A stretch of DNA of 54,826 nucleotides from a virus (taxonomy: Duplodnaviria > Heunggongvirae > Uroviricota > Caudoviricetes). The stretch lies in IMG/VR virus record IMGVR_UViG_2687453585_000002; one strand, written 5' to 3'. The notes beneath the pieces are model-generated. The model saw only the letters and a program-made list of their open reading frames with translations, was not told the DNA's origin and did no database searches. The position numbers and the translations under genes were made by a program. Each line of letters opens with the position of its first letter. The stretch's first letter is position 1. Of this stretch, positions 44,117 to 54,826 are shown piece after piece.

Positions 44117-44496
44117 ATGCGTAAATTATGTGCTGTTATTTTGTCCGCAGTAGTCTGGCAGGTCGCCGCTGCTACGCCAGCGAGTGCAGCAGAACATCAG
44201 TCCACGCTGAGCGCGGGGTATCTCCATGCCTCGACGAACGTTCCCGGTAGTGATGATCTGAACGGGATTAACGTGAAATACCGTTATGAGTTTACGGACG
44301 CGCTGGGGCTGATTACGTCCTTCAGTTATGCCAATGCTGAGGATGAGCAAAAAACGCGCTACAGCGATACCCGCTGGCATGAAGATTCCGTGCGTAACCG
44401 CTGGTTCAGCGTGATGGCGGGGCCGTCTGTACGCGTGAATGAATGGTTCAGCGCGTATGCGATGGCGGGTGTGGCTTACAGCCGTGTGTCGACTTT
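44117..44496 (+). pseudogene. lom: lom-like outer membrane protein gene, 5' fragment (interrupted by IS)
   Basis: signal peptide plus Ail/Lom-family beta-barrel sequence up to ...AYSRVSTF, then IS terminal repeat. Confidence 0.75.
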
Positions 44497-44689
44497 TGCG
44501 TATTTTCATGAAAGGAGATCACTCAATAACTTCCATCGAGATCGGGTAATAACATTTGAACAGATCGCTGAATAACATCGATGGAGATCACTTTTGACTC
44601 ATTTTGTTATTCAGTGATCTCCATCAATGTTATTGGAACTTCACAGGTGTGTTGATCTGTATCTTTTGCCATTCCGGTAAAGGATACCT

Positions 44690-46231
44690 ATGCCAACAGT
44701 TCCAATTTCTATGAGAAAACTTAAAGAAATTCTTAGGCTTAAATACGGTGTTGGACTCAGCCATCGACAAATTGGTCGTAGTCTTGCAATCTCCCCTTCC
44801 GTTGTATCCAGATATGCTAATCGGGCGGCTCAACTTGGCATAAAGCAGTGGCCCTTACCTACAGGATGGGATGATACAAAACTAAAACATGCGTTCCTTC
44901 AGACCCAGGTTAAGATGAAGAAGCACTCTCTGCCTGACTGGGCTACAGTACACCGGGAACTGCGTAATAAATGCGTGACGCTGCAGCTACTCTGGGAAGA
45001 ATACTGTGAGCGTAATCCAGGCGGTTTTTACAGCTATAACCATTACTGCCGGATGTACCGTGAATGGCTCAAAACCACTTCACCATCAATGCGTCAGGTA
45101 CATAAAGCTGGCGAAAAACTTTTCGTTGATTACTGTGGACCTACCGTTGGCGTTACCGACCCTGAGACCGGAGAAATAAGAACTGCTCAGGTCATCGTAG
45201 CTGTTCTCGGGGCATCAAGTTACACATGGGCAGAGGCCACCTGGTCTCAGCAGCTTGAAGACTGGGTGATGAGTCATGTTCGCTGCTTCCAGTGGTTGGG
45301 TGGCGTTCCTGAACTTGTTGTTCCGGACAATCTGAAAAGCGCCACATCCAGGGCATGTAAGTATGATCCTGACGTTAACCCTACCTACCAGCAGATGCTT
45401 GAGCATTATAATGTCGCAGTTTTGCCTGCGCGGCCACGTAAACCGAAAGATAAAGCCAAAGCTGAAGTTGGCGTTCAGGTTGTTGAACGCTGGATCATGG
45501 CCCGAATCAGGCATGAGATCTTCTACAGCCTTGCATCGCTTAATCAGCGCATTCGGGAGTTGCTGGAAAGACTGAATAACAAAATAATGCAGAAGTTGGG
45601 TTATTCACGTGCAGAACTCTTCATCCAGCTTGATAAACCCGCACTGAAGCCTCTTCCTGAAGCCAGTTACAGTTACACCCTGGTGAAGAAAGTCAGAGTT
45701 CATGCCGATTACCACGTGGAAATCGACAAACATTACTACTCGGTTCCATGTTCGCTGTTAGGCCAGCAACTGGAAGCATGGATCTCCGGAGAACTGGTAA
45801 GACTCTTCAATCAGGGGCAGGAGGTTGCTGTGCACCCGCGCAAGCGTACTTATGGCTACAGTACCCGCAACGAGCACATGCCTGAAGCTCATCGACAGCA
45901 TGCCACCTGGACGCCAGAGCGTCTTCTGGAATGGGCGGGGCACATAGGCAGTGAAACTCATAGTTATGTGCTTCATATACTGAACTCTCGTCCACATCCG
46001 GAACAAAGCTATCGCTTCTGCCTTGGACTCCTGAACCTTCATAAAAAATACAGTAAAGCCAGACTTAATGCAGCATGTGCAAGAGCTCTGAAAACAAAGG
46101 TATGGCGTCTGTCAGGTATTAAATCGATCCTGGAAAAAGGTCTGGATAAACAACCTGTTCAGGATCCAAAACCAGATCTGTTATCCACGATGGAACACGA
46201 AAACGTACGCGGCAGTGAGTATTACCACTGA
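44690..46231 (+). CDS. istA: IS21-family transposase IstA
   Basis: 513 aa; N-terminal HTH; DDE core. Confidence 0.8.
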   Translation: MPTVPISMRKLKEILRLKYGVGLSHRQIGRSLAISPSVVSRYANRAAQLGIKQWPLPTGWDDTKLKHAFLQTQVKMKKHSLPDWATVHRELRNKCVTLQLLWEEYCERNPGGFYSYNHYCRMYREWLKTTSPSMRQVHKAGEKLFVDYCGPTVGVTDPETGEIRTAQVIVAVLGASSYTWAEATWSQQLEDWVMSHVRCFQWLGGVPELVVPDNLKSATSRACKYDPDVNPTYQQMLEHYNVAVLPARPRKPKDKAKAEVGVQVVERWIMARIRHEIFYSLASLNQRIRELLERLNNKIMQKLGYSRAELFIQLDKPALKPLPEASYSYTLVKKVRVHADYHVEIDKHYYSVPCSLLGQQLEAWISGELVRLFNQGQEVAVHPRKRTYGYSTRNEHMPEAHRQHATWTPERLLEWAGHIGSETHSYVLHILNSRPHPEQSYRFCLGLLNLHKKYSKARLNAACARALKTKVWRLSGIKSILEKGLDKQPVQDPKPDLLSTMEHENVRGSEYYH

Positions 46232-46242
46232 TACGGGATCCA

Positions 46243-46992
46243 ATGATGAATCATCTTTACGAACAACTGACCGCACTTAAACTCACCGGCTTCCGTGATG
46301 CGCTTAAAAAGCAACTTGCTCAACCGGGCACATACCAGGAGCTGGGCTTCGAAGAACGCCTGTCATTACTGACAGCAGAAGAACTAACCTGCCGTGAAAA
46401 CAGGAAGGCAGAGCGTCTGATCAAACATGCACGGTTCAGACTTAATGCTGAGTTATCAAAGCTGGATTATCGTAACAATAGAGGGCTGGACAGGGCCCTC
46501 ATCCGTTCACTCAGTCAGGGAAACTGGTTAACCCTGAAACAAAATATTTTACTGACCGGGGCCACCGGCAGCGGTAAAACGTTCCTGGCATGTGCACTTG
46601 GTCATAATGCCTGCCGACAGGGATACAAGGTCTACTATTATCGCCTTAAAGCGCTGATGGAACAGTGCTATCAGGGGCATGCTGATGGAAGATACAGCAA
46701 ACTTTTGACCAGGCTGAATAATAGCGATCTGCTGCTTCTGGATGACTGGGGGCTGGAACCTCTCTCATCAGAACAGCGTAGCGACCTGCTGGAAATAGTG
46801 GATCTGATGTACCAACGAGGCTCAATCATCGTAGTGAGCCAGTTGCCGGTGGAAAACTGGTACAAAATGATCGGAGACTCCACACATGCGGATGCCATCC
46901 TAGATCGACTGGTTCATGGCAGTATCAAGATCGAACTTAAAGGAGAATCAATGCGGAAAATACAATCTCCGTTGACCGAAGGAGATCAGTGA
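46243..46992 (+). CDS. istB: IS21-family helper ATPase IstB
   Basis: Walker A GATGSGKTFLA and Walker B LLLLDDWG. Confidence 0.85.
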   Translation: MMNHLYEQLTALKLTGFRDALKKQLAQPGTYQELGFEERLSLLTAEELTCRENRKAERLIKHARFRLNAELSKLDYRNNRGLDRALIRSLSQGNWLTLKQNILLTGATGSGKTFLACALGHNACRQGYKVYYYRLKALMEQCYQGHADGRYSKLLTRLNNSDLLLLDDWGLEPLSSEQRSDLLEIVDLMYQRGSIIVVSQLPVENWYKMIGDSTHADAILDRLVHGSIKIELKGESMRKIQSPLTEGDQ

Positions 46993-47078
46993 AGGTAATT
47001 TAAAAACGGTTCTGTGAAAGTGACACGAACCGATCTCCATCGATGTTACTCACCGATCTCCTTCACGGTAATACGCAA

Positions 47079-47302
47079 CTTTCTCCGGGGATTATCTCCG
47101 CGTAACTGACAACAAGGGGAAAACGCACGATGTGCTGACCGGAAGTGATGACGGTCGCCACAGCAACACGTCTCTGGCGTGGGGGGCTGGCGTGCAGTTT
47201 AACCCGACCGAATCCGTGACCATTGACCTTGCTTATGAAGGTTCCGGTAGTGGCGACTGGCGAACGGATGCATTTATTGTTGGTATCGGATACCGTTTCT
47301 GA
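47079..47302 (+). pseudogene. lom: lom-like gene, 3' fragment
   Basis: in-frame continuation ...SGDYLRVTDNKGKTHDVLTGSDDGRHSNTSLAWGAGVQFNPTESV...GIGYRF* after the IS. Confidence 0.75.
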
Positions 47303-47407
47303 CAACAGACGCCGATTTATCTTCTGTAAATATTGTTATGATACGCAGGTTCATCCACCTTATGGGGTGAACTGCGTTTGAGGAAACGTAAAGTTACACT
47401 GTCCTGA

Positions 47408-47440
47408 AGCCCGTGGCGTCACTGCTGCGGGCTTTTTTTA
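47408..47440 (+). terminator. terminator-like hairpin after lom
   Basis: GC-rich hairpin followed by TTTTTTATT. Confidence 0.45.
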
Positions 47441-47453
47441 TTGGTGGAAAAGT

Positions 47454-50360
47454 ATGACAGTAAAAATTTCTGGCGTGCTTAAAGATGGCACAGGAAAACC
47501 AGTACAGAACTGCACCATTGTGCTGAAGGCCAGACGAACCAGCAGCACGGTGGTGGTGAACACGGTGGCCTCTGAAAATCCGGATGAAGCCGGACGTTAC
47601 AGCATGGATGTTGAGCATGGTCAGTACAGCGTCACCCTGCTGGTTGAAGGTTTTCCGCCTTCACATGCCGGGACCATTACCGTCTATGAAGGTTCCAGAC
47701 CAGGTACGCTGAATGATTTTCTCGGTGCCATGACGGAGGATGATGTACGACCGGAGGCACTGCGCCGCTTTGAGCAGATGGTAGAAGAGGTGTCACGTAA
47801 CGCCTCCGCGGTTGCACAGAATACGGCAGCCGCGAAAAAATCAGCCAGCGATGCCAGTGCATCAGCCAGCGAGGCGGCAACTCATGCAACCGATGCTGCA
47901 GCCTCATCACGTGCCGCCAGCACGTCAGCCGGACAGGCCGCGTCGTCGGCTCAGTCAGCGTCTTCCAGCGCAGGAACGGCATCGACAAAGGCCCGTGAAG
48001 CAGCAAAAAGTGCTGCTGCTGCAGAGTCATCAAAAAGCGCGGCAGCTACCAGCGCCAGTGCCGCGAAAACGTCAGAAACGAATGCCGCAGCATCACAAAA
48101 ATCGGCAGCCACTTCTGCATCCACAGCGACCACGAAGGCGTCAGAAGCTGCCACCTCGGCACGGGGTGCGGCGGCCTCAAAAGAGGCAGCGAAATCTTCA
48201 GAAACGAATGCATCATCAAGTGCCAGTAGTGCAGCTTCCTCGGCAACGGCGGCAGGAAATTCCGCGAAGGCGGCAAAAACGTCCGAGACGAACGCTAAGT
48301 CTTCTGAAACAGCAGCGGGACAGAGCGCCTCAGCTGCGGCAGGTTCAAAAACAGCGGCTGCATTATCTGCCAGTGCCGCGTCAACAAGTGCCGGGCAGGC
48401 CTCAGCCAGTGCCACCGCCGCCGGAAAATCGGCAGAAAGCGCCGCATCATCCGCTTCAACAGCCACAACGAAGGCTGGCAAAGCCACTGAGCAAGCCACT
48501 GCAGCAGCGAGGTCTGCTTCTGCAGCAAAAACCTCTGAAACAAATGCAAAGACTTCAGCAGACAATGCTGCTTCCTCTAAGGCGGCAGCCGCATCGTCAG
48601 CCAGTTCAGCGGCGTCATCGGCATCATCTGCGTCTGCTTCAAAAGATGAGGCGACCAGACAGGCGTCAGCAGCAAAGGGCAGCGCCACGACGGCATCCAC
48701 GAAGGCGACAGAGGCAGCTGGCAGTGCGACGGCGGCAGCTCAGAGCAAAAGTACGGCGGAATCCGCGGCAACGCGCGCCGAGACAGCGGCAAAACGGGCA
48801 GAGGATATTGCATCCGCCGTGGCGCTTGAGGATGCGAGCACGACGAAAAAGGGGATAGTACAGCTCAGCAGTGCGACCAACAGCACTTCCGAGTCACTGG
48901 CGGCAACGCCAAAAGCGGTTAAGGCGGTAATGGGTGAAACGAACAAGAAAGCGCCCTTAAATAGTCCTGCACTGACCGGAACGCCAACAACACCAACTGC
49001 GCGACAGGGAACGAATAATACCCAAATCGCAAGCACGGCTTATGTTATGGCTGCGATCGCTGCCCTCGTGGACTCGTCGCCTGACGCACTGAATACGCTG
49101 AACGAGCTGGCTGCGGCGTTGGGCAACGACCCGAATTTTGCGACCACCATGACTAGCGCGCTTGCGGGTAAGCAACCGAAAGATGCCACCCTGACGGCGC
49201 TGGCCGGGCTTGCTACTGCGGCAGACAGGTTTCCGTATTTTACGGGGAATGATGTTGCCAGTCTGGCAACCCTGACAAAAGTTGGGCGGGATATTCTTGC
49301 GAAATCGACCGTTGCCGCCGTTATCGAATACCTCGGTTTACAGGAAACGGTAAACAAGGCTGGTAACGCCGTTCAGCGTTCCGGCGATAAAATGACCGGA
49401 GAACTGAAAATTGGCACGGTGAATGCGCTGCGAATTTTCAATGATGCCTTCGGTCTTATTTTCCGTCGTTCAGAAGATTTTCTTCATTTCATTCCGACGG
49501 CTGAAGGACAAGGCGAAAACGGTGATATCGGCCCATTAAGGCCATTCGCTATAAATCTGAGAACAGGTGCTATATCTGTCAGCCACGGGGCCAAAATTGA
49601 TGGTGGGCTGGCGCTTGGTACAGATAACGCACTGGGCGGTAATTCCATTACTCTCGGAGATAACGACACTGGTATTAAACAGGGCGGCGACGGTGTCCTT
49701 TTATTCTATTCAAATGGACAACTGGCATTTGGGCTTCAACCCGCATCTGCTGATTTTTATAAGCGGGTTGCATATATTCATCAGGGAATAATTCCTGATG
49801 GAAGTGGCGCATTTGCAGACCAGTTGAATAATGCCACCGCGCCTTTTGTTCAGACGCAGTTTGCCTGGAATCCCACTCCTGGTGGTCTTTACGTGCCGAT
49901 AGTTAAGGGCTTGTCCATTCGCAATGGACAGGGCTATCCCGGCGCGGTCAGCTTTGGGTATTTACTGACAGAACAGTATGGATTTCCGGTTCCATGTATT
50001 CATATGCGTGGCGATGGCGGTAATGATGCTTTATGGCAGTTTAACCCGAACGATAAATCCTTTATTTCACCGGGTGCTCTTATTGCGGGTGGCGTCCGTT
50101 ATAACACCGATGGAAATATATTTGGTGGGTGCTGGGGGTCAAACTTAAATGATTACCTGAATAGTTCTTTTATCAGAAATGTGCGTCTGGGAGGCAGACG
50201 TTCTGACACATTATATCGCGGAGGACTTTGCGAACCAGGTAATGGTCATGTGACAACAGGATTGCAAATTATTGGTGAGGTTGATGGAGATGACTGGATG
50301 GTGTCACGACCACTACAAAAATACATTTCTGGTAACTGGTATAACGTTGAACAGGCATAG
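47454..50360 (+). CDS. stf: side tail fibre protein (Stf-like) with Ala/Ser-rich repeat shaft
   Basis: 968 aa; long low-complexity A/S/T-rich region; C-terminal receptor-binding part lies within invertible segment. Confidence 0.8.
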   Translation: MTVKISGVLKDGTGKPVQNCTIVLKARRTSSTVVVNTVASENPDEAGRYSMDVEHGQYSVTLLVEGFPPSHAGTITVYEGSRPGTLNDFLGAMTEDDVRPEALRRFEQMVEEVSRNASAVAQNTAAAKKSASDASASASEAATHATDAAASSRAASTSAGQAASSAQSASSSAGTASTKAREAAKSAAAAESSKSAAATSASAAKTSETNAAASQKSAATSASTATTKASEAATSARGAAASKEAAKSSETNASSSASSAASSATAAGNSAKAAKTSETNAKSSETAAGQSASAAAGSKTAAALSASAASTSAGQASASATAAGKSAESAASSASTATTKAGKATEQATAAARSASAAKTSETNAKTSADNAASSKAAAASSASSAASSASSASASKDEATRQASAAKGSATTASTKATEAAGSATAAAQSKSTAESAATRAETAAKRAEDIASAVALEDASTTKKGIVQLSSATNSTSESLAATPKAVKAVMGETNKKAPLNSPALTGTPTTPTARQGTNNTQIASTAYVMAAIAALVDSSPDALNTLNELAAALGNDPNFATTMTSALAGKQPKDATLTALAGLATAADRFPYFTGNDVASLATLTKVGRDILAKSTVAAVIEYLGLQETVNKAGNAVQRSGDKMTGELKIGTVNALRIFNDAFGLIFRRSEDFLHFIPTAEGQGENGDIGPLRPFAINLRTGAISVSHGAKIDGGLALGTDNALGGNSITLGDNDTGIKQGGDGVLLFYSNGQLAFGLQPASADFYKRVAYIHQGIIPDGSGAFADQLNNATAPFVQTQFAWNPTPGGLYVPIVKGLSIRNGQGYPGAVSFGYLLTEQYGFPVPCIHMRGDGGNDALWQFNPNDKSFISPGALIAGGVRYNTDGNIFGGCWGSNLNDYLNSSFIRNVRLGGRRSDTLYRGGLCEPGNGHVTTGLQIIGEVDGDDWMVSRPLQKYISGNWYNVEQA
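49321..49346. repeat. DNA invertase crossover site (left inverted repeat) within stf
   Basis: TTATCGAATACCTCGGTTTACAGGAA is the near-perfect reverse complement (22/26) of the site at 52402-52427. Confidence 0.7.
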
Positions 50361-50375
50361 CCATCAGGAGAATAT

Positions 50376-50903
50376 ATGCAACATCTGAAAAATATTACCG
50401 CCGGAAACCCCAAAACCATTGAGCAGTATCAGCTTACGAAAAAAGCTGGCGTTATCTGGCTATATACAGAAGACGGTAAAAACTGGTATGACGAATTAAA
50501 AAACTTTCAGGATGATACTTTAAAAATAGCTTATGACCAGAAGGGGATTATTCGTTGTATTGAGAAAGACGTATCAACACTTAACCCTGACGGGTTAAGT
50601 GTTGTTGAGTTACCGAATATAACAGCCAACCGTCGCGCCGATATCTCGGGAAACTGGAAGTTTCTGGATGGTAAAGTAGTAAAGCGGGAATATACAAAAC
50701 AGGAACTGCAACAGCAGGCAGAGTTACAAAAAGCCGCTTTGCTTTCCGAAGCGGAGTCTGTGATTCAACCGCTGGAACGTGCTGTCAGACTGAATATGGC
50801 AACTGATGAGGAACGCACACGACTGGAATCATGGGAACGCTACAGCGTTATGGTCAGCCGTGTGGATACTGCAAAGCCTGAATGGCCACAGAAACCAGAA
50901 TAA
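50376..50903 (+). CDS. tfa: tail fibre assembly protein
   Basis: 175 aa; follows stf. Confidence 0.8.
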
Positions 50904-50933
50904 CAACAAATTAAGGCCCGTACGGGCCTTTTC

Positions 50934-51467
50934 TTATTCTGGTGGTTCCGGGAATGTTACAGGAAGAACCGAGGTATCAGTTGTCTCAACCTGTTGCACG
51001 TATCGCATCCAGTTCATCAGTTGCTGTCTGTCTGAATCAGTGATAATCCCCAAAGTAAGCTGTGTTTGCCAGAACTGCGTTTTTTCTCTGGCCTGCTGTA
51101 ATAATATTTTTTTCTGGTTTTCCGTCTGTAGGCGCAACTCTTCTTCGGTATATACACGTTTAATGACTGCGCCATCTTTAAACATCCATTTACCTGAGTC
51201 GTCAGCACGCCGGTTGGCGGTAATATCAGGAATCTCAACGACGCTATAACCTTCAGGGTTAAGTGTGGAGGCATCTTTGGTTATGGCAACAATAATATTA
51301 TTTTCATCGTAAACAATCTTTATGGTGTCTGGCTGAAAGTTTTTCACTTCCTCATACCAGTTTTTTCCGTCCTCAGAGTAAAGCCAGATAACTCCGTGTT
51401 TCTTTGTTAACTCATACTGTTCCAGTGTTTTAGCATTACCCGCTTTTATGTTCTTTAAGTGCATCAT
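50934..51467 (-). CDS. tfa: tail fibre assembly protein (alternative, inverted orientation)
   Basis: 177 aa paralogous to the plus-strand tfa ([30 protein letters not shown]...). Confidence 0.8.
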
Positions 51468-51468
51468 A

Positions 51469-52416
51469 TTAAACGCTCGCTACATTATACCAGGTGCCAT
51501 TTATATACTTTTGAACGGGTCTGTAATAAACGCCCGCTATATTATCGGCAGAGTTAGACCCTGTATCCTGAACATTAATACCAGACAATACATGACCTGA
51601 AGGGCACTGGAAATTCCATGTTTGCCAGTTGTTCACTCCATAATATTGCTGTGAACCAAGTCGAACATCTTTCACATAACGGGAATCAAAGTTACCGTAA
51701 TCCGAGGGGTTAACACGCCCTGTAATATTTATGGTTTTATTACTTTGAATGCTTCCGGAGACAAAGCGCATAACATGGACGTTATTAGCATAAACATCCA
51801 GATTACCATCGCCATTTTGTTTAAAGCCCGTGTCATTATCACCCAATACAATCGAATTACCGCCAAGAGCACTGGATGTTCCGATACCCAGTGCACCATT
51901 CAGTTGACCACCAGATAACGGCAGTGCACCAACATCTCCTGCTGAAGGCTTTCTGGTGGTGGTGTAAAATTCGGACCAGTCGGCTTCAAAACCATAACCA
52001 TCACGGGCTGAACGATAAAAAATACCGCCATTTTTATAATTAATCCGAAACTGAGCTGCAGGACAACTTCCTTCTCCCATATAAAAATGAATAATTAACG
52101 TTGATGCACCACTAATAGTTGCGTTATAGGCTCCGCTACTCCAGTTCCATCCAACTGCTTTATCATTCGCAACGGTGCTTCCTGTTTTCCCTAAGGCAAA
52201 CGCACCAACATGACTTGCTTTTAATGTGATATCGGAGGAACCATCAAAAGCCACATTGCTTATTTTCCTGGCAGTTTTTAATTTTGCAGCTGTAGAAGCA
52301 TTGCCGGATAGTTCACCAGAAAGGCCACCGCTGAATGTTTGTCGATTAGTCCAGGTATTCGCTGTACTGAGTAACGGTATTTTCTCCCCGCTTGTGCCGA
52401 GTTCTCGTAAACCGAG
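51469..52416 (-). CDS. alternative tail-fibre C-terminal segment (promoterless, fused to stf on inversion)
   Basis: frame open from the crossover site (stop TAA lies inside site at 52420-52422); shares ALGGNSIxLGDNDTG block with current stf C-terminus. Confidence 0.65.
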
Positions 52417-52427
52417 GTTTTAGATAA
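52402..52427. repeat. DNA invertase crossover site (right inverted repeat)
   Basis: TTCTCGTAAACCGAGGTTTTAGATAA; partner of 49321-49346; just upstream of pin remnant. Confidence 0.7.
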
Positions 52428-52481
52428 TGGCGGTTTCTGGCCTGCATGGCATGATTTGTGCTTTTGGACGGGAGATTCAGC

Positions 52482-52740
52482 GTGCTGATTGGCTATGTAA
52501 GGGTATCAACAAATGACCAGAATACAGATCTGCAACGAAACGCTCTTGTTTGTGCAGGATATGAACAAATATTTGAAGATAAATTAAGCGGAACAAGGAC
52601 AGGCCGACCTGGATTAAAACGTGCTTTAAAGCGCCTTCAAAAAGGTGACGCACTGGTTGTCTGAAAACTGGACTGACTGGTTCACTGTATGCGGCATCTT
52701 GTCGTGCTGGTGGTGGAAGCCTAGAAAAAGTATCGGGTGT
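52482..52740 (+). pseudogene. pin: Pin/Gin-family serine DNA invertase, decayed
   Basis: N-terminal LIGYVRVSTNDQNTDLQRNALVCAGYEQIFEDKLSGTRTGRPGLKRALKRLQKGDALVV intact, then TGA where Trp is expected and further stops; replaced after ~52728 by a tfa 3' fragment. Confidence 0.7.
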
Positions 52741-52860
52741 TACTGAACCGTGTTGATACATCAACTGCACCTGATATTGAGTGGCCTACGAACCCTGTCA
52801 GGGAGTAATCATTGGGATTATGCCGCAGCACGTCTTAAGCAAGAACGTGCTGCGGTTGGA
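52728..52860. repeat. ~130-bp direct repeat (copy 1), tfa 3' end plus hairpin
   Basis: about 88 percent identical to 53780-53910; encodes ...[26 protein letters not shown]. Confidence 0.7.
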
Positions 52861-52862
52861 TG

Positions 52863-53531
52863 CTATTTTTTCCCTGAAGCGGAAAACATTACTACAGTAC
52901 CTTGAACCTTGGTTTTAACATTCTCGAAATGCTCTGAGAGTATATGTGTTAAGCCTTCTTCGGAATCTTTTGTGTTTGAAAAGATGCCTTTCTGATTGTA
53001 AATGCGCATCAGTTTTTGACCGAAGCTATTGTGCACAACTCCATCGCCAAGAATTGTGGCTCCGTATAGAGTTCCATCGTCAGTTAAGGCCTGCGCCGCA
53101 TTGCGTATTACACAGCTTTTTGTAGATATATTTCCAGGCAGGCAGTGAAGAAGGTAAAACATGGAAATGGAATCAAATTGACCATGTAACGCCGCGGGAT
53201 AAGGTTCAAAAACATCATGGCTAATTTTATGTTTAATTTTTGATTCCCCAGCCCTTGTAGATGCCGCGTTCAGGCTAGCTTCGTTCAAATCCATTAAAGA
53301 TATCAGACTACTCTCAGGTACGTGAGTAAGGTAAAACCCAGTTCCAACACCAATATCCAGATGGTTGTTACCTACATGTTCCAGAAAGTGTGGAAGAAGG
53401 TGTTCCTTTGTAGGACATCCCCATGCAAGCCGATTTGATACTCCCAAAACCCACCAGTCATAAAGCTTTAGGGTAAGTGGTGTGTAAATTTTAGCCCCAT
53501 CATCTGTGTTTTTTTTCATTGATTTCACCAT
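52863..53531 (-). CDS. class I SAM-dependent methyltransferase
   Basis: 222 aa; motif I LDIGVGTGFY; AT-rich relative to neighbours; flanked by ~130-bp direct repeats. Confidence 0.6.
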   Translation of the reverse strand: MVKSMKKNTDDGAKIYTPLTLKLYDWWVLGVSNRLAWGCPTKEHLLPHFLEHVGNNHLDIGVGTGFYLTHVPESSLISLMDLNEASLNAASTRAGESKIKHKISHDVFEPYPAALHGQFDSISMFYLLHCLPGNISTKSCVIRNAAQALTDDGTLYGATILGDGVVHNSFGQKLMRIYNQKGIFSNTKDSEEGLTHILSEHFENVKTKVQGTVVMFSASGKK

Positions 53532-53587
53532 GTTATAGTTTTATTTGTGAATTAAATCAATTATGGCGATGAATTACAAGGGGTTAA

Positions 53588-53857
53588 ATGCTGCCGCAGC
53601 ATAGCGATATTGAAATAGCCTGGTATGCTTCGATACAGCAGGAGCCGAATGGCTGGAAGACCGTCACCACACAGTTCTACATCCAGGAATTCAGTGAGTA
53701 TATTGCGCCACTGCAGGATGCTGTAGATCTGGAAATCGCAACGGAGGAAGAAAGATCGTTGCTGGAGGCATGGAATAAATATCGGGTATTGTTGAATCGT
53801 GTTGATACATCAACTGCACCTGATATTGAGTGGCCTGCAAATCCTGTCAGGGAGTAA
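53588..53857 (+). pseudogene. tail fibre assembly gene fragment (C-terminal part only)
   Basis: 89-aa ORF ending ...[31 protein letters not shown]-terminal half of a Tfa-like protein without N-terminal half. Confidence 0.5.
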
Positions 53858-53910
53858 TCATTGGGATTATGCCGCAGACACGTCGTATGCAGGAACGTGC
53901 TGCGGTTAGT
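53780..53910. repeat. ~130-bp direct repeat (copy 2)
   Basis: partner of 52728-52860. Confidence 0.7.
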
Positions 53911-54268
53911 TTGTGAGCTTTCGATAGTGGTTGTTATTTTTGCCCTTATTTGTTCCGGAGGCCATGGTTCAATGGTCCGTCTGCCCCCTGTGGTGATGTC
54001 AGCAAAATCAGCCACTGCGCGAACCACAATAGCCCGGGAAGATGCTGAAGATCACCAGGTAAAGCTGTCAGCGCAGAAACTGGAAGAACTGCTCGCATCA
54101 ATGGTTAAGGATGAGGTTGATCGCAATGATGGGATTTATTGACGTCAGCGAGAGCAGAAGGAAGAACTGAATAACCTGAATGATTTACGCTCAATCAGAG
54201 CGATGGCGATTAGCGGCAATCACGCTCGATAAAATTAACCCCGGTGATCATCCGGGGTTTTGCATTCA

Positions 54269-54826
54269 TTAAAACCGCATCAACCTTTCCACCAATTGTT
54301 CTTTACGGGCAACGATCCACCCATGTTGCTCCAGATAAAATTTAAACCGTTCCAGCGTGCATACCATCGCATCGGCGGGGACTTTTTCTGTGAACTCGAC
54401 CTGACCGTGTTTATCGAAGTGGATCAGTAATGCGCATCCATTATTTGGGGCGGGGGAGTTTTGTGCTGCAGGAGGACGTTTGTGGAGTTCTTCTTCCATT
54501 GCGTTAAATTTTTCAATGTAAGCTTCTTTTAGTCTGGCTGCTTTTTTGCCAGTAAATCCCATTACGAGGAACATGAAGCCGTCTTTTGTGATCAGGTAGC
54601 ATCGTGATTCACGTTCTGCGCCGTTGCCAATTTCGACAGTCTGAACATCGGCCGAAAAGTTGGCTGATGTAAATTCGGGAGAGCAGTCGAGTGTGTCAAT
54701 CTTAGCTAAAACGTGTTTATGTTGTTTATCGAAGTAGTCGGCAACAGCTTGAGAGGTGGTAACCAGGCGACCATCTTTGAAAAAGACTTTTGGTGACTCG
54801 TTAGAAAAAGTTATAGCTGTATTCAT
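54269..54826 (-). CDS. Rha-family phage regulatory protein
   Basis: 185 aa; N-terminal VTTSQAVADYFDKQHKHVLAKIDTL resembles Rha N-terminal domain; start ATG is the last 3 nt of the window. Confidence 0.6.
   Translation of the reverse strand: MNTAITFSNESPKVFFKDGRLVTTSQAVADYFDKQHKHVLAKIDTLDCSPEFTSANFSADVQTVEIGNGAERESRCYLITKDGFMFLVMGFTGKKAARLKEAYIEKFNAMEEELHKRPPAAQNSPAPNNGCALLIHFDKHGQVEFTEKVPADAMVCTLERFKFYLEQHGWIVARKEQLVERLMRF

Follow-up and report, generated by a model that had tools for sequence, protein, structure and literature searches.

Trans-driven tail-fibre inversion in the lambdoid prophage Phi4 of Escherichia coli ST131, whose own invertase gene is truncated

Described invertible tail-fibre segments and the identity of the locus

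The G segment of phage Mu consists of the constant 5' part of the S gene, a crossover site, Sv-U, U'-Sv', a second site and the invertase gene. In E. coli, the P segment of prophage e14 is an stf/tfa segment inverted by its own PinE; PinQ, encoded by prophage Qin, inverts it in trans as well, which demonstrates experimentally that inversion in trans occurs between prophages (Kirigo et al. 2025, PMC12529663). The segment closest to the one studied here belongs to prophage Phi4 of the E. coli ST131 strain EC958. Forde et al. (2014, PLoS One 9:e104400, PMC4134206) described it as an invertible segment of 3106 bp, found both orientations within one EC958 PacBio culture, with the alternative orientation as a contig of 12.7 kb, and reported that the Phi4 invertase is truncated (EC958_1582, no HTH). 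They inferred that inversion takes place in trans and proposed the Phi1 enzyme. In another study, on ST131 "Bone" isolates, PCR and XmnI restriction confirmed switching in a BP-4795-like prophage; the two prophages listed there as carrying an invertase do not include it.

The stretch of viral DNA analysed here, called the window, is 54,826 nucleotides long (IMG/VR record IMGVR_UViG_2687453585_000002). Its positions 46100-54826 were 100% identical to prophage Phi4 of EC958, and its crossover sites were exactly the Phi4 sites in Table 3 of Forde et al. (PMC4134206). The left site corresponds to EC958 1484784-1484809 (Phi4_5prime) and the right site to EC958 c1487865-1487890 (Phi4_3prime). The locus and the published Phi4 segment are one and the same; no difference was found, and the sites, the truncated invertase, the presence of both orientations and the proposal of a trans-acting enzyme are all shared. 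The switch is real, working and trans-driven, and has already been described as an instance of phase-variable tail fibres in the pandemic clone ST131, to which this study adds little. New in this study are the count of orientations across genomes, the exact match to the reference genome JJ1886 and a further assembly with both orientations. The study also adds the junction at which the deleted gene meets a tfa 3' end, the mosaic descent of the cassette and the enhancer region kept in the invertase stub.

Crossover sites, cassettes and invertase remnant

The features of the locus are as follows, with positions in the window.

47454-50360, plus strand: stf, the side tail-fibre gene in the present orientation, 968 aa; open reading frame, Pfam phage_tail_N (E=5e-70)
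47454-49334, plus strand: constant part of stf
49321-49346, plus strand: left 26-bp crossover site, inside stf; TTATCGAATACC-TC-GGTTTACAGGAA, core TC at 49333-49334
49335-50360, plus strand: variable C-terminal cassette 1 of stf
50376-50903, plus strand: tfa, tail-fibre assembly chaperone of cassette 1, 175 aa; Pfam Caudo_TAP (E=9e-35); WP_001164137.1, annotated as tail fiber assembly protein
50934-51467, minus strand: tfa', tail-fibre assembly chaperone of cassette 2, 177 aa; Pfam Caudo_TAP (E=6e-32); WP_000972097.1
51469-52413, minus strand: cassette 2, an alternative C-terminus of stf with 314 codons and a stop, without its own start; Pfam gp37_C
52402-52427, minus strand: right 26-bp crossover site; TTCTCGTAAACC-GA-GGTTTTAGATAA, core GA at 52414-52415
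52482-52712, plus strand: what is left of a Gin-type serine invertase gene; Pfam Resolvase match confined to profile positions 2-69 of 145
52500-52570, no strand assigned: candidate recombinational enhancer (Fis sites) in the invertase remnant, proposed from position and homology
52711-52857, plus strand: copy of a tfa 3' end, continuous with the invertase remnant at the deletion junction; direct repeat with 53760-53907 (89-90% identical), annotated as tfa fragment

When the Mu gix sequence was used as a probe with at most three mismatches, exactly two matches were obtained in the 54.8 kb, on opposite strands, and none in any of 100 shuffled sequences. The matches are the two crossover sites, with 2 and 3 mismatches to Mu gix, at the places where a preliminary description of this DNA had put them. 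The sites are inverted, have imperfect dyad symmetry and identical central dinucleotides (TC/GA), are complementary at 22 of 26 positions, and lie in an imperfect inverted repeat of 32-36 bp. The longest identical run between the repeats (49330-49341) includes the core, and the exchange maps within 49330-49340 by the differences between the half-sites.

Open reading frames and Pfam matches agreed with the preliminary description of two alternative stf C-termini and their tfa chaperones in opposite orientation, and all four cassettes were open reading frames. The in-frame fusion that it predicted was also obtained: inversion in silico at the core gave an open Stf of 941 aa, which is the annotated RefSeq protein WP_023363168.1 of JJ1886. 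Cassette 2 is part of intact WP_023363168.1 in both JJ1886 and record CP015087, and only an inversion allows its expression, as the C-terminal portion of the 941-aa Stf. The 968-aa stf of EC958 is open, yet it is flagged as a pseudogene by RefSeq.

The locus is a Gin/Pin-type invertible tail-fibre segment. It shares with the Din family the paired inverted 26-bp sites, the occurrence of the segment in both orientations with exchange at the core, and the alternative tail-fibre C-termini, which are accompanied by cognate assembly genes and joined in-frame to a constant N-terminal part. It lacks the adjacent functional invertase of about 190 aa with Resolvase and C-terminal HTH_7 domains, as no HTH_7 was found by Pfam in the stub. 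A shufflon, with the Rci tyrosine recombinase and multiple sfx repeats, was considered and rejected because there are two sites, one segment and a serine-type remnant (Pfam Resolvase).

The gene order is that of the Mu G segment, and at 528 and 534 bp the two tfa genes match Mu U and U' in length. About half of the segment (49314-51523) was 97% identical to the G segment of the Mu-like Yersinia phage vB_YpM_3. Unlike a Mu-type myovirus, Phi4 is lambdoid, with a phage_tail_N side tail fibre, and its cis invertase is dead. Like Phi4, e14 carries a segment that the invertase of another prophage can invert; unlike Phi4, e14 is cryptic, keeps its own intact pinE, and has sites with an AA core instead of TC/GA. 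The P2-like prophage Phi1 of EC958 was 96% identical to window positions 51148-52672 and 94% identical to the constant stf stretch upstream of the left site (49000-49341), and its crossover sites differ from those of Phi4 by only 2 and 1 mismatches. Phi1 is nevertheless a different element: its segment is 2773 bp long and lies inside a 508-bp imperfect inverted repeat, and in contrast to Phi4 it has an intact 199-aa invertase (WP_000905061.1).

The invertase remnant starts with GTG at 52482, is readable through codons 1-60 and keeps the catalytic Ser9. The first stop is a TGA at 52662-52664 where Trp61 is expected, followed by in-frame stops at 52674-52676 (TGA, at Arg65) and 52722-52724 (TAG). 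The decay of the gene, as given in the preliminary description, was right as to the readable codons and the stops; the stops are not the sole lesion, because the gene is deleted after about codon 78, including helix E and the HTH domain. Homology ends near 52712, where the stub is fused to the copy of the tfa 3' end, and position 52740, at which the preliminary description ended the element, is tfa-derived sequence. The stub was identical to Mu gin at 174 of 180 nt and to the Phi1 invertase gene at 171 of 180 nt; after position 52684 it has a 27-nt run identical to e14 pinE and is thus a mosaic. It is annotated as a pseudogene, a recombinase without its C-terminus. Translational read-through of the stub was rejected as a source of enzyme because no helix E or HTH sequence is left downstream.

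Occurrence of both orientations

The right junction was searched in 5426 complete E. coli genomes at an identity of at least 99%. The window orientation was found in 238 genomes and the flipped orientation in 152, a split of approximately 61:39, where each count is the majority orientation chosen by the assembler and the genomes are related and do not represent independent events. In all 152, the flipped form adjoins the same 5' part of the dead invertase stub. The flipped left junction was found in 139 records. Compared with the window flipped in silico, JJ1886 had 0 mismatches over 7300 nt, stub included. Assembly GCF_001874485.1 was mixed: its chromosome has the window orientation, and a redundant 32.7-kb record (CP015087) has the flipped orientation, with breakpoints inside the inverted repeats. 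The split across complete genomes shows that switching has continued despite the dead invertase.

The preliminary description had judged the switch to be probably locked in the present orientation. On such a reading, death of the phage's own invertase leaves the segment fixed as it stands in the window, with cassette 2 and tfa' silent and decaying. The state of the adjacent gene (60 codons, no helix E, no HTH) and the lack of any other serine recombinase encoded in the window speak for it. The genome counts, with the same stub beside both forms, the exact flipped copy in JJ1886, and the presence of both orientations in single cultures or assemblies, including that of EC958, contradict it, and cassette 2 and tfa' are intact reading frames. 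We regard a locked switch as extremely unlikely; it is refuted for the ST131 lineage and could hold in a strain lacking every other invertase. The database orientations might instead be assembly artefacts, in which a repeat-flanked segment was placed arbitrarily. Record CP015087 is redundant and rich in frameshifts, as is usual for contigs of low coverage, and short-read assemblies need junction-spanning reads to orient such segments. Against this, the repeats are only about 30 bp and easily spanned by reads, Forde et al. (2014, PMC4134206) checked for adapter and hairpin artefacts and excluded them, the other study verified switching with PCR and XmnI digests, and 390 complete genomes carry one form or the other with clean junctions at 99-100% identity. 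Such an origin of the counts is hardly credible.

Another way to obtain both orientations would be RecA-dependent homologous recombination at the short inverted repeat, with no site-specific invertase. The sites do lie in an imperfect inverted repeat, and the identical run between its arms contains the core, so the crossover position fits both mechanisms alike. On the other hand, the identical run is 12 bp, far below efficient RecA substrates; the minority orientation was assembled as a separate contig in two cultures, and the population is split 61:39; the repeats are canonical gix-type sites; and the same genome encodes intact invertases. We therefore consider RecA-dependent inversion highly unlikely.

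Orientation differences were also seen between isolate series (4/0 versus 4/1-1 and 4/4; U12A versus U13A-15A; 2019_APHA versus 2017_APHA). A literature search on the clonality of the series 1162C / 1162T7 / 1162invT2 returned only unrelated human-genetics papers, so these differences are only suggestive.

The enzyme in trans and the stub as a possible carrier of an enhancer

We are highly confident that the Gin/Pin-type host-range switch of the lambdoid prophage Phi4 still works and is driven in trans by the invertase of another prophage. A serine DNA invertase would cut both 26-bp sites at the central TC/GA dinucleotide and exchange the strands, and the DNA between the cores (49335-52413) would flip. 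The constant 5' part of stf would then read in-frame into either C-terminal receptor-binding cassette, for an Stf of 968 or 941 aa, and the matching tfa chaperone gene would end up downstream in either orientation. Since only a dead 5' stub is left of the phage's own invertase gene, the enzyme has to be supplied in trans by a co-resident prophage. In a tblastn search of the window with the Phi1 invertase for a second serine recombinase, only the stub was matched, which places the trans-acting enzyme outside the window.

The preliminary description had allowed for the Pin or Gin of another prophage acting in trans, and that explanation agrees with the data. Two intact invertases are encoded elsewhere in EC958, those of the P2-like Phi1 (199 aa; EC958_RS04620) and of Phi2 (190 aa; EC958_RS04895), both with Resolvase and HTH_7 domains, and these are its candidate enzymes. 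U12A has, at the same site, a P2-like prophage with a variant invertase that is divergent but intact. EC958 and U12A, the two genomes examined for this, both carry other invertases, so neither is a strain with both orientations and no other invertase. The number of matching places per record had been considered as a way to find genomes without Phi1; it was dropped as a test of a locked switch, since the U12A invertase shows that a single place does not imply the absence of an invertase. We infer that the acting enzyme is one of the Phi1, Phi2 or variant P2-like invertases, and the data fit each of them; Phi1 is the likely donor of the enzyme.

In Mu and Hin, the enhancer is inside the invertase gene, approximately 100 bp from the nearer site. 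The stub retains the stretch that holds the Fis-dependent enhancer in Mu gin and hin, and so it probably matters in cis. By a G-N13-C scan and homology, candidate 15-bp Fis cores were placed at 52503-52517 and 52552-52566, which are 95 and 144 bp from the core of the right site, a location in agreement with the published one. Between 52500 and 52570 there are 2 base differences from Mu gin, one of them inside a candidate Fis core. From this homology, the stub may contain a functional enhancer. The papers on Hin give the position and properties of the enhancer, not its sequence.

We tentatively suggest, as a possibility that we rate somewhat below even, that the 230-bp stub persists as the carrier of a cis-required Fis-dependent enhancer while the Phi4 switch rides on a P2-like, Phi1-type invertase. 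If so, another phage would determine the tail-fibre phase of Phi4, and the phase would become fixed wherever a lineage has lost all its invertases. For e14, the PinQ-driven flip has been reported to serve anti-phage defence via StfE2 (PMC12529663); a more remote possibility, by analogy, is that the trans-driven flip of Phi4 also serves defence of its host.

The locus is a clear natural case of the switch of one prophage being run by the enzyme of another. In practice, the segment causes assemblies to contain alternative contigs, falsely duplicated sequence and pseudogene calls that disagree. The annotation of Phi4 shows no pseudogenes between int and J except for an IS in lom.

The invertible segment and its published counterpart

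The E. coli O25b:H4-ST131 strain EC958 carries a sequence with 100% identity to window positions 46100-54826. Within it, positions 49321 and 52402 correspond to EC958 1484784 and 1487865, exactly the coordinates that Table 3 of Forde et al. 2014 (PMC4134206) lists as Phi4_5prime and Phi4_3prime, the crossover sites of the lambdoid EC958 prophage Phi4. The invertible locus is already known, since the same locus was published in 2014. In that study, the Phi4 invertible segment was 3106 bp, the opposite orientation was recovered as a separate 12.7-kb PacBio contig from one EC958 culture, and EC958_1582 was described as a truncated invertase without the HTH domain. It was concluded that Phi4 inversion must be mediated in trans, and the invertase of Phi1, a P2-like EC958 prophage, was proposed on the basis of the near identity between the crossover sites of Phi1 and Phi4 (PMC4134206). 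For ST131 'Bone' isolates, PCR and XmnI digestion in a subsequent preprint confirmed switching in a BP-4795-like prophage, which is absent from that preprint's list of two invertase-carrying prophages. To this picture we add a 238:152 population split, an exact match in JJ1886, a second mixed assembly, a deletion junction and a retained enhancer region.

Features of the segment
47454-50360, + strand: stf, lambdoid side tail-fibre gene (968 aa, Pfam phage_tail_N)
49321-49346: left crossover site, 26 bp, TTATCGAATACC-TC-GGTTTACAGGAA
50376-50903, + strand: tfa, 3' of stf
50934-51467, - strand (opposite to stf): second tfa (tfa')
51469-52413, - strand: cassette 2, the alternative tail-fibre C-terminus without a start, beyond tfa'
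52402-52427: right crossover site, 26 bp, inverted relative to the left, TTCTCGTAAACC-GA-GGTTTTAGATAA

The two sites are complementary at 22 of 26 positions, and both lie within a 32-nt imperfect inverted repeat. When the 54.8-kb window was probed with the Mu gix site (up to 3 mismatches), only these two sites were matched, and 100 shuffled sequences gave no match. The arrangement in the preliminary description, in which inverted 26-bp sites bracket two stf C-termini and two tfa genes, was thus upheld by the ORFs, the Pfam matches and the gix probe. Its predicted in-frame fusion was also reproduced: flipping the segment in silico between the cores joined the constant part of stf to cassette 2 in frame, giving a 941-aa protein with the expected 15-residue junction.

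The invertase remnant and the source of the enzyme

The 5' remnant of a Gin-type serine invertase gene (52482-52712, + strand) begins with a GTG at 52482 and keeps 60 good codons, including catalytic Ser9, followed by TGA in place of Trp61 (52662-52664), TGA in place of Arg65 (52674-52676) and TAG (52722-52724). Invertase homology ends near 52712 (about codon 78), and only positions 2-69 of the 145 in Pfam Resolvase were matched; Pfam found no HTH_7 in the remnant. No other serine recombinase was found in the 54.8-kb window. These results confirm the decay reported earlier, with its TGA at the expected Trp and further stops, and require one correction, the truncation near codon 78 with its tfa 3'-end junction, which had been missed.

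Up to 52672, the remnant was identical to Mu gin at 174 of 180 nt and to the EC958 Phi1 invertase at 171 of 180 nt; beyond this, 27 consecutive nt are identical to e14 pinE, and then comes tfa sequence. The remnant is itself a mosaic of Mu-gin-like, pinE-like and tfa sequence, which implies that recombination among invertase genes preceded the deletion.

Invertases of the Gin/Hin family require a Fis-bound enhancer in cis, which in Mu and hin is contained in the 5' part of the invertase gene itself, some 100 bp away from the nearer site. This region (about 52500-52570) is kept in the remnant and differs at only 2 bases both from Mu gin and from the sequence of a Mu-like Yersinia phage, and a G-N13-C scan gave candidate Fis cores at 52503-52517 and 52552-52566, which lie 95 and 144 bp away from the right-site core. 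The remnant may therefore still matter as the carrier of a putative cis enhancer.

Sequences relevant to the loss and supply of the enzyme
Window 52711-52857: copy of a tfa 3' end, continuing directly from the remnant and repeating 53760-53907
EC958 957668-958267: intact invertase of the P2-like prophage Phi1, 199 aa, Resolvase and HTH_7
EC958 1004913-1005485: intact invertase of the prophage Phi2, 190 aa, Resolvase and HTH_7

Gin, Cin, Pin and Hin can replace one another. Window 51148-52672, which runs from within tfa' through cassette 2 and the right site into the remnant, was 96% identical to Phi1. In U12A, which is without Phi1 sequence of the EC958 type, the same place is occupied by a P2-like prophage whose invertase is divergent but intact. 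The explanation that agrees with the data is inversion in trans by the enzyme of another prophage, with the Phi1 and Phi2 enzymes as candidates. The earlier proviso of a Pin or Gin acting from another prophage agrees with this, given the two intact invertases elsewhere in EC958. Trans inversion between prophages has an experimental precedent, in which PinQ of Qin inverts the e14 P segment (PMC12529663).

Orientation of the segment in E. coli genomes

The two junctions of the flipped window (500 nt each, the right one including 250 nt of the remnant) were used as queries on 5426 complete E. coli genomes. In 152 genomes, the flipped right junction was present at ≥99% identity with full coverage, and the flipped left junction in 139 records, whereas the right junction in window orientation was found in 238 genomes at ≥99% identity; in 230 genomes, the whole 6.9-kb region was collinear with the window. 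The ST131 reference genome JJ1886 had 0 mismatches over 7300 nt to the in silico flipped window, a match that extends over the remnant with its stop codons and over the deletion junction; WP_023363168.1 is the JJ1886 annotation of the 941-aa Stf. The left and right half-sites differ on either side of the core, and together with the 100% matches to the simulated junctions this confines strand exchange to positions 49330-49340, which surround the TC core.

In assembly GCF_001874485.1, the chromosome is in window orientation and a redundant 32.7-kb linear record, which duplicates the trp-to-tail region, is flipped, with only 49315-52433 reversed. This record resembles the EC958 contig of Forde et al. 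and bears the same signature of an alternative contig. Orientation also differed within series of similarly named isolates, grouped by name alone: 4/0 versus 4/1-1 and 4/4, 1162C versus 1162T7 and 1162invT2, and 2019_APHA versus 2017_APHA.

The preliminary description identified the element and its dead invertase correctly, but its view that the switch is probably locked in the current orientation was wrong: with 152 flipped and 238 unflipped genomes, the exact JJ1886 flip and the mixed GCF_001874485.1, the segment is not locked.

The redundant 32.7-kb record of GCF_001874485.1, NZ_CP015087.1, was deposited as 'extrachromosomal'. It contains many frameshifts and copies the trp-to-Phi4-tail region of the chromosome, NZ_CP015085.1, with the segment flipped; it represents a contig in the alternative orientation and not a replicon. 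NZ_CP082831.1 (strain SCAID WND1-2021) carries both orientations on one chromosome, at about 4.765 Mb and 2.245 Mb, which is either a true second prophage copy or an alternative contig that was joined to the assembly in error.

The prophage, its cassettes and flanks

From int to J, no gene other than lom carries a pseudogene flag in the annotation, which includes int, xis, the genes for the repressor and Cro, the replication genes, Q, the lysis, terminase, head and tail genes, and J; real virions could therefore have their host range altered by the Phi4 switch. The lom gene is split into an N-terminal and a C-terminal fragment, one on each side of an insertion:
44117-47302: lom (Ail/Lom) region with the IS21-family element ISEc12 inserted, istA at 44690-46231 and istB at 46243-46992

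The left part of the segment (49314-51523) shared 97% identity with the G segment of the Mu-like Yersinia phage vB_YpM_3, and the right part (51148-52672) was Phi1-like (96%). On this comparison, the invertible cassette (49314-52672) is a mosaic of widely exchanged modules, and the same cassettes move between Mu-like, P2-like and lambdoid phages.

In EC958, stf (1482917-1484413, window 47454-48950) is flagged by RefSeq as a pseudogene 'missing C-terminus', although in the window the reading frame stays open through all 968 aa and the flipped 941-aa form is intact in the JJ1886 annotation; this looks like an annotation inconsistency due to the invertible segment. A class I SAM-dependent methyltransferase gene (52863-53531, - strand) lies between the two direct tfa 3'-end copies (52711-52857, fused to the remnant, and 53760-53907; 89-90% identical) and looks like cargo flanked by tfa remnants. 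An intact ompW lies beside int and a 141-nt ompW fragment beside trpA at the opposite flank, an arrangement suggesting that the prophage integrated into the ompW 3' end, which was duplicated in the process.
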